Source of the DNA: a virus
Lineage: Duplodnaviria; Heunggongvirae; Uroviricota; Caudoviricetes
Virus record (IMG/VR): IMGVR_UViG_3300001199_000003
Span: 1-58,536 of that record
Strand: one strand, 5' to 3'
DNA length: 58,536 bases
The position numbers were made by a program, and so were the translations under genes. This document shows positions 4,832 through 28,663 of the stretch, one piece after another. The notes beneath the pieces were generated by a model. That model ran no database searches and was not told where the DNA came from. It saw only the letters and a list, made by a program, of their open reading frames with translations. Numbering within the stretch: position 1 is the stretch's first letter; every line of letters begins with the position of its first letter.

Positions 4832-4911
4832 GGGAAATAATGAATTTAATTGCTGCAGTGTTTAATTTTATGATACGATGCGTCGAGATAGCTTTTAACA
4901 AGGGGCAAAAA

Positions 4912-5505
4912 ATGACTAAAAATATCTTTACAATCGTACTCGACACACTGCCTAATAAATTCCCGACTACTCCCGATCAAGATGCTTTCATTCTTAAATT
5001 GAGTGAGGTTTCAGGTGTTACAATAACTCAAGATAAGCCAACCGCTGCGCTTATTTTAGGGCCAAAAATGTTAACTGCAGGCGGTTGTTACGCAACTATC
5101 AACCCTGAAACTGAAGTGATCATTCTAAATGAAAACGCTAACAATGATTATTGGTATAGCACTATTTTTCATGAGCTAGCTCATGCAACTGGATCAAGTA
5201 AGCGTTTTAACCGCGTGGGTGTTGTAGCCTGCCAAACTAAGACTGACTATCATTTAGAGGAAATTATTGCCGAGTCAGTAGCTATGAGAGTTATGGAGTC
5301 AATGGGTTTAGCAACGGATGAAACACGCGCTAAATCTAATTCATATATTCAAAGCTATGAAAGACCGCTTATTATGTTTGGCGCTATGGTTGACGTGATG
5401 AAACTAGATTATGAGATTAGTAAGGCCGAGGCTTTAGTTATGGACTGGCTTAATAAAGCAGGTTTAAAAGCCGTCTCTCAAGGTGTTGAATTTAAAGCGG
5501 CTTAA
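4912..5505 (+). CDS. zincin-like metallopeptidase (MPTase / ArdC C-terminal-type domain)
   Basis: YSTIFHELAHATG (HExxH) ...RFNR... YHLEEIIAE; AGGGG RBS before ATG 4912. Confidence 0.8.
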   Translation: MTKNIFTIVLDTLPNKFPTTPDQDAFILKLSEVSGVTITQDKPTAALILGPKMLTAGGCYATINPETEVIILNENANNDYWYSTIFHELAHATGSSKRFNRVGVVACQTKTDYHLEEIIAESVAMRVMESMGLATDETRAKSNSYIQSYERPLIMFGAMVDVMKLDYEISKAEALVMDWLNKAGLKAVSQGVEFKAA

Positions 5506-5693: not shown

Positions 5694-6233
5694 ATGGTTC
5701 AATTTATTTTAGGGGCTATGTTTTTAGTTGTCATTGCATTTTTTTGCAATAGTGAGGCTAAAACTAATGACCGCACGCCTGCTATTGAAACGGATATAAT
5801 CGAGGTTGACACTAGACCGCAAGACGTTGAGGGTTTGGCCAAAGCTAACGGGTTCAAGCCGTCTAAAAGAATTATTGACGCTATCATTAGAGCATCTGAT
5901 ACGTATTCAATTGACGCATTAGAATTGACTGCTATTGGTATCATTGAGACGGGTTTAGGAAAATACAACGTGACACGTAAAAACAAAAATGGCACGCATG
6001 ATAGGGGCGTGTTTCAGATCAATACGGTTAACTATTCTAAATGCGTTGAGTATAACTTAGATAGTCCCGAGGGTTCTGCTCTATGCGCTGCTAAACTTCT
6101 TTCAAGTATTAAATCAAAGCGCGCTGACTACTTAGGCGTGTATCACTCTAAAACGTGTAAGCCTGCGTTTTGCCCTAAAAAAGCTTATATGAAAAAACTC
6201 TCTAAAGTTCTAGCACTAACTACCGATAACTAA
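5694..6233 (+). CDS. lytic transglycosylase (SLT domain) with N-terminal membrane anchor/signal
   Basis: AIGIIET (catalytic Glu), NKNGTHDRGVFQIN motif, hydrophobic N-terminus. Confidence 0.8.
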   Translation: MVQFILGAMFLVVIAFFCNSEAKTNDRTPAIETDIIEVDTRPQDVEGLAKANGFKPSKRIIDAIIRASDTYSIDALELTAIGIIETGLGKYNVTRKNKNGTHDRGVFQINTVNYSKCVEYNLDSPEGSALCAAKLLSSIKSKRADYLGVYHSKTCKPAFCPKKAYMKKLSKVLALTTDN

Positions 6234-27311: not shown

Positions 27312-27692
27312 TTATCCAGGGAGGATTTCGTCAGATTTAGCTGCAGGAGCCTTAGATTCAGCGGGAGCTGAAGCTTTAATTGTAGTAGTTTCAGTAGTTT
27401 TGCTCTCAACAGAGAATGAACCGTCAGCACCTCTTTGGAACTTGCGGCCCCAATAAAGTCCAGCGCAAACCATAAACAAATTAAGGGTTTGAGAAGGGTC
27501 GATTCCACCTACAAGACCAGAAGCCTTACCGATCATACCTAACATGCAGAAGTTAAAAGAAACTATAACCAACGTAAGACTCACAGAGCCTTTGCCGGTT
27601 TCAGGATCACGGAAAGTAGGCAGAGGAAAGCCTCGCTCGTTCATACCGCGTACCATTTTAAGCCATTTTTCTTTTAATTCTTGTGATGTCAT
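27312..27692 (-). CDS. holin-like two-TM protein
   Basis: Start trimmed to MTSQEL because the ORF-track start lies in tRNA-Pro; two hydrophobic segments, charged C-tail. Confidence 0.55.
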   Translation of the reverse strand: MTSQELKEKWLKMVRGMNERGFPLPTFRDPETGKGSVSLTLVIVSFNFCMLGMIGKASGLVGGIDPSQTLNLFMVCAGLYWGRKFQRGADGSFSVESKTTETTTIKASAPAESKAPAAKSDEILPG

Positions 27693-27714
27693 ACTGGGAA
27701 GATTAGGACGGAAA

Positions 27715-27791
<77 letters not shown>

Positions 27792-27796
27792 AAATA

Positions 27797-27872
27797 TGGA
27801 GCCGACGACAGGAATCGAACCTGCTGCCTTCAGTTTACAAAACTGTTGCTCATCCTCATGAGCTTCATCGGC
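27797..27872 (-). tRNA. trnT: tRNA-Thr(UGU)
   Basis: GCCGATG/CGTCGGC acceptor, loop TTTGTAA, GGTTCGATTCC, encoded CCA. Confidence 0.93.
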
Positions 27873-27882
27873 ATTAAAAAAA

Positions 27883-27957
27883 TGGAGCCGTTGGAGAATT
27901 TTGAAATCTCGGCCTTCGCATTGGAAGTGCGACGCTCTGCCTCTGAGCTACAACGGC
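27883..27957 (-). tRNA. trnG: tRNA-Gly(UCC)
   Basis: GCCGTTG/CAACGGC acceptor, TCGCA-CTTCCAA-TGCGA, U73, CCA; T-stem has U53.U61. Confidence 0.9.
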
Positions 27958-27961
27958 TAAA

Positions 27962-28042
27962 TGGTGAGAAGCTAGGCTGGCGCTGGTATCCAACATTTCC
28001 CTATTTGCGTTAAACCCTTCATTTCCTCCGAAGGGACTTCTC
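27962..28042 (-). ncRNA. tRNA-like RNA with 7-bp acceptor stem and ACCA end but no canonical anticodon/T arm
   Basis: GAGAAGT...GCTTCTC-A-CCA; internal CCCTTC/GAAGGG and GTTGG/CCAGC helices; sits between tRNA-Asp and tRNA-Gly with the same short T-rich spacers. Confidence 0.7.
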
Positions 28043-28050
28043 ATAAAAAA

Positions 28051-28128
28051 TGGCGGCACGTATCGGATTTGAACCGATGATCTCCTCATAGACAGTGAGG
28101 CATCCACTCCAGGCTGGACCAACGCGCC
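28051..28128 (-). tRNA. trnD: tRNA-Asp(GUC)
   Basis: GGCGCGT/ACGTGCC acceptor, CCTCA-CTGTCTA-TGAGG, G73, CCA. Confidence 0.95.
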
Positions 28129-28140
28129 GAAAAAGAAACT

Positions 28141-28169
28141 AATATACCCTAAAACGAAAAAACCCGCAA
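28141..28169 (-). promoter_or_regulatory. possible sigma70 promoter for the tRNA array
   Basis: TTGCGG-17-TATATT on the - strand, overlapping the tube terminator. Confidence 0.45.
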
Positions 28170-28187
28170 GTGGTTAGCTTGCGGGTT
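28157..28187 (-). terminator. rho-independent terminator after the tail tube
   Basis: AACCCGCAAG/CTTGCGGGTT stem, T-run on the - strand. Confidence 0.85.
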
Positions 28188-28213: not shown

Positions 28214-28663
28214 TTACGGCAAGCTTACTGCTCCAGTCCCTTCATCTTGTGCTCCAGATTCATCACTTGCACGGATACCCATGTAGTTGATAGAAACACG
28301 CGATGTGGCTTTCGCATTATAGTTTGTGTTATCTGTTGTCGGCACACACCCGAGGATCGTTTCCATTGTTTCGCCGGTCTGACGATCCACGATAGTCATC
28401 GTGAAAGGCTCGAAAGCCAATAGATCTTGGATTTTCGGGACTTTAGGAAGAACGTGCTTACCTTGGCCAACAACGCGGAAACCTGAACAAGATACGTTCA
28501 CGGCTTCTTTAGACGTGATCGCAATTTCGTCAGGGCTGTAACGGCCAAGCAAGTGAATTGCTTCGACCCCAGTGCTGTTTGATACGCTACAAGACTCAAA
28601 GATACCAACCAGTTGGTTGTCAATGTAAACTTTGGCTCGTGCGCCTGTGACTACTTTACTCAT
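28214..28663 (-). CDS. tail tube protein
   Basis: 149 aa directly after the sheath; TGARAKVYID..LVG...E.IH.LG...P.E motif. Confidence 0.85.
   Translation of the reverse strand: MSKVVTGARAKVYIDNQLVGIFESCSVSNSTGVEAIHLLGRYSPDEIAITSKEAVNVSCSGFRVVGQGKHVLPKVPKIQDLLAFEPFTMTIVDRQTGETMETILGCVPTTDNTNYNAKATSRVSINYMGIRASDESGAQDEGTGAVSLP

Follow-up and report, generated by a model that had tools for sequence, protein, structure and literature searches.

Stable RNAs that are not tRNAs have long been known from phage tRNA clusters, as RNA C and RNA D of phage T4 illustrate. Their genes, rnaC (species 1, 139 nt) and rnaD (species 2, 119 nt), are arranged head to tail with tRNA genes, at 1 to 6 nt from their neighbours. 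The T4 record annotates both merely as small stable RNAs and leaves the function field empty, and to our knowledge no function has been assigned to either of them by anyone. The tRNA-like domain of tmRNA, an RNA of about 260 to 400 nt that carries a G3:U70 pair (the pair that AlaRS reads), has an acceptor helix and CCA and no anticodon arm. The t-elements of plant mitochondria occur in an mRNA context and retain a tRNA shape. They are reported to be non-decoding tRNA-like structures that help to form the 5' and 3' ends of neighbouring transcripts (PMC1920247). Bacterial RNase P cleaves hairpins with an acceptor-type helix, contacting the RCCA (through its P15 loop), N(-1) and G1:C72; its natural non-tRNA substrates include pre-4.5S RNA, phage M3 RNA and the phage-derived antisense C4 RNA (PMC11143913). 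A terminal helix, a 3' RCCA and a single-stranded 5' leader are enough for correct cleavage, and processing of pre-4.5S RNA is independent of the specificity domain of the enzyme (PMC11143913).

The element that we describe lies in a tRNA array in a stretch of 58,536 nt, here called the window, which is part of an IMG/VR virus record of 170,618 bp in which ARAGORN finds only five tRNAs. The tail-tube protein (PF26461) encoded upstream indicates that the source is a large tailed phage. The element occupies the 93-nt gap between tRNA-Asp and tRNA-Gly (Table 1), and its boundaries are those of a tRNA gene, with position +1 of a terminal helix of 7 bp at the 5' end and ACCA at the 3' end. A first-pass annotation of the sequence had drawn attention to this stretch as a CCA-ending, tRNA-like RNA, and rereading the minus-strand letters of 28042-27962 gave the same sequence. 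The acceptor stem (GAGAAGU/GCUUCUC, with one G-U pair), the discriminator A and the encoded CCA are all present, as in a tRNA, and the placement with short spacers was likewise as annotated: they measure 8 and 4 nt, against 10 and 5 nt for the remaining tRNA-tRNA spacers of the array. CCA is encoded by all four array tRNAs. The same 81 nt occur without a single change in an independent Logan assembly (run SRR2043728, locus L075), so that the element is not an assembly quirk of one pipeline.

Table 1. Features of the element and of its surroundings (coordinates in the window)
Feature	Coordinates	Strand	Basis or remark
81-nt element, whole: three-way junction with acceptor-like end and encoded ACCA	27962..28042	-	sequence reading, fold
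P1, 5' strand GAGAAGU, predicted acceptor-like helix, positions 1-7	28036..28042	-	pairs with 27966-27972, probabilities 0.92-1.0
P1, 3' strand GCUUCUC, positions 71-77	27966..27972	-	sequence reading, pair probabilities
P2, predicted hairpin: 7-bp stem, 7-nt loop GAGGAAA	28015..28035	-	fold; alone -8.4 kcal/mol, z -1.9
J2/3, 11 nt predicted unpaired, UUUAACGCAAA, joins P2 to P3	28004..28014	-	fold
P3, predicted: UAGG/CCUA base, 4x4 internal loop, UGUUGG/CCAGCG stem, AUA loop	27973..28003	-	fold
Discriminator A73 and encoded CCA	27962..27965	-	sequence reading
5' spacer UUUUUUAU (8 nt), from tRNA-Asp CCA to element; U at position -1	28043..28050	-	sequence reading
3' spacer UUUA (4 nt), from element to tRNA-Gly	27958..27961	-	sequence reading
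tRNA-Asp(GUC), first gene of array	28051..28128	-	ARAGORN; Rfam 52 bits
Rest of array	27715..27957	-	ARAGORN, Rfam
tRNA-Gly(UCC)	27883-27957	-	ARAGORN, Rfam
tRNA-Thr(UGU)	27797-27872	-	ARAGORN, Rfam
tRNA-Pro(UGG)	27715-27791	-	ARAGORN, Rfam
Tail-tube gene (PF26461), upstream of island; anchor for every synteny comparison	28214..28663	-	
126-aa gene directly 3' of island	27312..27692	-	
Tail-tube gene terminator, overlapped by possible weak promoter 5' of array	28141..28187	-	terminator called, promoter by eye

The predicted fold has three helices with pair probabilities above 0.8 throughout and a minimum free energy of -26.3 kcal/mol (z -2.2), which 8 of 200 shuffles equalled. It is unchanged when the 445-nt array precursor is folded as one, and 195 of 200 shuffles fold less well than the interior does when the terminal helix is left out. 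P2 (positions 8-14 with 22-28) abuts the 5' strand of P1 with zero linker, at the place of a D arm. P3 (UAGG 40-43/CCUA 67-70 and UGUUGG 48-53/CCAGCG 57-62) is connected, again without a linker, to the 3' strand of P1, at the place of a T arm but without the T-loop motif; P1 and P3 are able to stack into 11 continuous bp, followed by the internal loop. The second hairpin had been drawn differently before, with GUUGG and CCAGC closing a 9-nt loop and CUA left unpaired. That version comes to -19.7 kcal/mol, costs 6.6 kcal/mol more than the favoured fold and has a probability near 0; the ambiguity of register arises because CCAGCG and CCAGCC stand in tandem. The modelled topology is thus that of a tRNA minus the anticodon arm, without the U8/N9 linker or the D-loop and T-loop signatures. 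With the canonical tRNA (RF00005) the element shares the 7-bp acceptor stem, the discriminator, the encoded CCA, the gene length and the array spacing, and it has none of the anticodon arm, the U8/N9 linker and the elbow of D loop and T loop.

The element is neither a tRNA nor a tmRNA nor a member of any Rfam family. It matched no family at E<=10, either within 801 nt or alone as 96 nt, and this holds specifically for the tRNA model RF00005 and for the C4 family on both lengths. In YrlA/Y RNA-like RNAs (RF02553) a tRNA-like module with T and D arms is joined to a Ro-binding stem; a weak match to this family in the region falls on tRNA-Thr/Pro, off the element. ARAGORN reported no tRNA in it at a 1% threshold (-ps1) and none with its armless mitochondrial models at default; with the mitochondrial models at a 50% threshold there were only two low-grade calls, both of which ignore the acceptor ends. 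We therefore rejected an armless or rewired tRNA, for which ARAGORN gives no candidate and the only 7-nt loops, GAGGAAA and ACGCAAA, both lack U33. A tmRNA was rejected as well: ARAGORN (-m) called none, even at -ps50, Rfam had no tmRNA match, and the third acceptor pair is G3:C70 and not G3:U70. The element resembles the tRNA-like domain of tmRNA in its acceptor helix, CCA and lack of an anticodon arm, and it has a short internal ORF; it differs in having no G3:U70, no T arm and no pseudoknots and in measuring only 81 nt. A third candidate was a diverged member of a tRNA-Pro(UGG)-like family that we found in the islands of close relatives and from which we built a covariance model, R2. By eye, GGGAA(U)AUGUUGG and a stretch resembling a D loop are common to the element and these genes. 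However, 262 of 3,000 shuffles reached the score of the best local alignment (p about 0.09, not significant), and R2, run with filters off, detected all four neighbouring tRNAs and missed the element. Rfam, ARAGORN and this clade model thus bear out the earlier observation that there is no TTCRA loop and no anticodon arm.

The placement and the end features of the element are beyond chance. When the 93-nt gap was shuffled with its dinucleotides preserved, 71 of 50,000 sequences (about 0.14%) reproduced the arrangement, defined as a 7-bp helix with at most one G-U, any nucleotide and CCA, with both spacers at most 10 nt long. The genome as a whole has 0.26 frames of this kind per kb and strand, with the real tRNAs counted in.

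Compared with the T4 RNAs, the element is on the same strand as its tRNA neighbours and likewise separated from them by a few nucleotides. It resembles rnaD, which ends in CACCA and has a predicted fold without a T arm, and differs from rnaC, which keeps a canonical T arm (GGGUUCGAAUCCC). In the MFE fold, the annotated ends of rnaD do not pair as a clean acceptor helix of 7 bp, whereas those of the element do. Both T4 RNAs are longer, and there is no similarity in sequence or model; a covariance model made from the single sequence of the element (R1) gave only noise on the T4 tRNA region (E at least 1). The same model found no homologue in 47 relatives, each searched over its entire record (for six the completeness is 90% or more), in 22 further loci of close relatives (13, 8 and 1) or in arrays that contain the same unusual tRNA-Gly. 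A blastn search of the element against GenBank phages gave no match, an exact 26-mer found no homologue in IMG/VR, and two exact words found none in metagenome collections. Sequences behind tRNA-Ala and in the 103-kb island of the same genome, compared by eye, have no motif in common with the element. A bacterial origin was rejected: a 20-mer had five matches, in unrelated MAGs with dissimilar flanks, and a 22-mer had none in prokaryote genomes. The scans of collections used exact words and a one-sequence model reaches moderately diverged relatives only; within these limits, the element is an orphan of one phage lineage. The first-pass annotation had suggested looking for conservation in related phage tRNA arrays, and the element was absent from every relative that we examined, the closest included.

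The tRNA island that follows the tail-tube gene is accessory, and its content changes rapidly. Relatives of the tail-tube protein number 70 in IMG/VR and hundreds in the protein collection. The nearest relative found (L002) has a tube protein that is 99% identical, and 87% at the DNA level, and its island reads Asp - Asn(GUU) - Gly - Thr - Pro-like gene - Gln; the flanking tRNA-Asp, tRNA-Gly and tRNA-Thr are 74 to 77% identical to those of the window, against 87% for the tube gene. Other tRNA sets fill the island in L003, L004 and L077-L086: a small ORF and a terminator precede the tRNAs in L003 and L004 (tube proteins 95% and 91% identical), and Leu-Asn-Tyr-Pro-like-Asp sets are present in L077-L081 (95%). 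In L101 (97%) the island is absent, the terminator leads directly into the next gene, and this gene, the counterpart of the 126-aa gene that follows the island in the window, comes straight after it. No tRNA was found behind the tube gene in L076 (96%) and L085 (93%), where the next gene starts 82 and 166 nt past the tube gene. Across the phages compared (L101:1020-1102, L076, L085, L002-L004 and L077-L087), whose tube proteins are 91 to 99% identical, the island (27700-28160 in the window) is thus polymorphic in presence and content; no set is common to two lineages, and three phages (L076, L085 and L101) lack it outright. A further phage, L102 (tube 97%), has at about 550-680 what by eye is the 3' half of a tRNA (T arm and acceptor-like strand) together with a truncated 5' half; in contrast to the element, these fragments resemble real tRNA debris.

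It had been foreseen that the homologous position in relatives might hold an ordinary tRNA of which the element is a decayed, unconserved copy. The first part of this is the case, as the Asp-X-Gly slot of L002 is filled by an ordinary tRNA-Asn and the element lacks conservation, but a recognisable decayed copy it is not. The element is no more similar to the tRNA-Asn of L002 than shuffled controls are, and its global alignment was worse than 4,837 of 5,000 interior-shuffled controls (97%), so that we rejected this origin. Neutral decay of a tRNA-Asn would also have damaged the terminal helix, yet this is perfect, and two new stable hairpins are not an expected product of such decay. Replacement of one cassette by another is the simpler history.

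Our preferred reading, to which we give about an even chance, is that the element is one cassette, without a decoding role, of a small accessory tRNA island of hypervariable content and gives rise to a co-processed, stable, CCA-ended passenger RNA, comparable to RNA C and RNA D of T4. Its transcription, processing and stability are what we infer from the sequence. No terminator interrupts the array, and transcription of the element together with the tRNAs is thus to be expected; it and the four tRNAs would form one precursor. In general, polycistronic tRNA transcripts are separated by RNase P (PMC2190699). The enzyme would cut before G1, aided by U(-1), G1:C72 and the 3' ACCA, which would pair with RNase P RNA; cleavage by RNase P at tRNA-Gly, or by RNase E in the U-rich spacers, would leave a 4-nt tail, which exonucleases would trim back to CCA. 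The product would be a stable 81-nt small RNA with paired ends and a terminal CCA. Since it is known from a single phage lineage, the element most likely serves no conserved purpose and may persist through its compatibility with the processing of the array.

The comparison with known substrates of RNase P is consistent with such a passenger. Like pre-4.5S RNA, M3 RNA, the C4 RNAs of P1 and P7 and acceptor/T-stem hairpins, the element combines a terminal helix and a 3' RCCA with a 5' leader. Its sequence has G(+1):C72, U(-1) and the ACCA end, features that RNase P reads on hairpins too (PMC11143913), so that tRNA-like processing can reasonably be inferred. What it does not have is a T-stem-loop and the 12-bp stack of acceptor and T stem that acts as a ruler for the enzyme; the predicted stack is 11 bp and runs into an internal loop, and there is no T-loop. 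The specificity domain of RNase P would therefore find no docking site, and cleavage could be slow or misplaced. As to t-elements, the neighbours of the element are tRNAs, which need no extra processing signal.

The terminator scan places the tail-tube terminator at 28187-28161 (-), and the array begins 33 nt beyond it. A promoter-like site was seen by eye in between and partly within it (TTGCGG at 28169-28164, 17 nt, TATATT at 28146-28141, all on the minus strand); its -35 hexamer matches the consensus at 3 of 6 positions, and a consensus promoter scan did not call the site. L002 has TATAAT in place of the TATATT. That the promoter is weak by consensus speaks against a co-processed passenger, and the perfect 7-bp helix and the two stable hairpins, for which a pure passenger has no obvious reason, hint at selection. 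The -35-like TTGCGG is at the same time the 3' half of the terminator stem, so that terminator and promoter-like site overlap, and the stretch 28141-28187 (-) of the window is 92% identical in L002, which exceeds the conservation of both flanking genes.

A rather unlikely alternative is that the element is recombination debris, the scar of a replaced or scrambled tRNA cassette, with a terminal pairing that is a relic or a coincidence and an RNA that is degraded. The reshuffling of the island among phages with 91 to 99% identical tube proteins agrees with this, as do the tRNA-fragment-like sequences of L102, the tRNA-Asn in the slot of L002 and the short internal repeats of the element (GGAAAUG and CCAGC, each present twice). 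However, no residual similarity was detected to tRNA-Asn, to the tRNA-Pro-like genes or to any tRNA model. The rarity of the acceptor-type frame among shuffled gaps and an interior more structured than most shuffles argue against it as well, and exact tRNA-unit boundaries with an intact ACCA are not expected from a scar.

It is unlikely that the element is a selected mimic of the acceptor end, an abundant acceptor helix with CCA that acts as a sponge for toxins of the tRNA 3' end or is itself aminoacylated. In its more specific form, in which the phage makes an acceptor-end-only mimic in bulk to soak up toxins of the toxSAS/CapRel and MenT/AbiEii types and so shields real tRNAs, we consider the idea improbable. 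The toxSAS enzymes, implicated in antiphage immunity, recognise nothing of a tRNA beyond the CCA groove and the first five acceptor bp; minihelices and even the pentamer CACCA serve them as substrates. Phages respond to defences that target tRNA by supplying tRNAs of their own (PMC11559606). MenT toxins extend tRNA 3' ends (PMC10435456). The perfect helix and the well-folded body of the element also speak for this role. On the other hand, it is a singleton, absent in every relative examined including the closest, which gives no indication of selection. FaRel2 has four acceptor determinants, and the element has only two of them (G1:C72 and Pu5:Py68), with A2:U71 and A4:U69 at the other two. For aminoacylation, it has no G3:U70 and no other minihelix identity set was recognised, and A73 is common to many tRNA species. 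The first-pass annotation had suggested an RNA that is processed like a tRNA and might be an aminoacylatable decoy, an amino-acid donor for a non-ribosomal ligase or a regulatory RNA. The frame for tRNA-like processing stands on anatomical grounds; aminoacylation, with neither G3:U70 nor an anticodon nor a known minihelix identity set, found no support, and nor did the amino-acid donor.

The loops of C4 antisense RNA are complementary to their target mRNA, and a regulator of this kind, a phage RNA matured by RNase P whose loops pair with phage or host mRNA, is very unlikely to be what we see here. C4 is a natural substrate of RNase P (PMC11143913) and the element would expose single strands of 7 and 11 nt, but the Rfam C4 family does not match it, and the complementary matches that it has in the 170-kb genome are, even at their best, no better than chance, none being antisense to a gene start; this includes J2/3, which has no complementary target at any gene start of the phage genome. 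The element had furthermore been called the structural complement of the 47-kb RNA, an idea that duplex prediction did not support: the duplex energies are within the range of shuffles, 50 of 60 and 7 of 60 mononucleotide shuffles being as good. A coding feature is extremely unlikely: GGAGG-AA-AUG could open an in-frame ORF of 16 codons (MKGLTQIGKCWIPAPA; stop UAG at 69-71), and a 29-nt stretch agrees at 26 of 29 positions with coding sequence (..YPGGNEPFNAYR..) of low-GC phages, but normal initiation needs more than the 2 nt that separate GGAGG from the AUG, the AUG itself is predicted to be paired within P2, ARAGORN finds no tmRNA, and the match, picked by a 17-base pattern expected to hit by chance, stands in a different reading context and goes no further, so that a protein-gene remnant was rejected (the pattern GGAGGAAAT-N6-TTTAACGC has 13 viral matches, the best of them, 26 of 29 nt in 30%-GC phages, being judged chance).

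Accessory tRNA islands of large phages contain more than tRNAs, and the element is a stripped-down example of this, as it has only the features used by processing enzymes and by readers of the acceptor end. If it accumulates, it would show what minimal portion of a tRNA is needed for the tRNA maturation pathway in vivo, and it would then also be a candidate for phage acceptor-end decoys against defence toxins that target CCA. An acceptor-end sponge, if true, would be a counter-defence principle distinct from resistant tRNA isoacceptors. As a single unconserved sequence, the element is a data point on the fast turnover of accessory islands in large phages.

Several unusual tRNA genes were seen nearby and in relatives. 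The tRNA-Pro(UGG)-like genes of the close relatives' islands are 78 to 79 nt long and are missed by ARAGORN (L077:3466-3543, L078:3491-3568, L080:1289-1366, L083:3477-3554, L086:3086-3163 and L002:4888-4966). Their anticodon loop is normal (UUUGGAG), but GG is missing from the purine-rich D loop (GAAnnAGAAAU), and the T loop is GGCAGUA or UGCAAGU where UUCRA would be usual. All four stems show covariation, with nine pairs changed on both sides and 99% of cells paired. In the copies of L083, L086 and L087 the 3' end is ACAG and not ACCA and the terminal helix has 10 bp, and these copies are therefore without a free CCA. ARAGORN also missed tRNA genes in L008 (about 6032-6107), L009 (about 4901-4976) and L013 (about 5081-5157), which by eye have Lys(UUU), His(GUG) and CAU anticodons. 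All three have a UGCRA T loop, with G replacing U55, and such loops may represent a non-standard elbow used throughout the clade. In the window itself, the T arm of tRNA-Gly(UCC) (27883-27957, minus strand) is odd: it reads GAGAUUUCAAAAUUCUC, Rfam flags a non-standard pair in it, and this arm recurs in the tRNA-Gly of seven otherwise different IMG/VR phages. The surroundings of the island include genes of the homing-endonuclease type: a GIY-YIG gene lies at L077:1998-2498 and L085:1998-2498, between the tube gene and a 716-aa gene that probably encodes the tail sheath, and in L079 the gene right after the island has a weak HNH_3 match.
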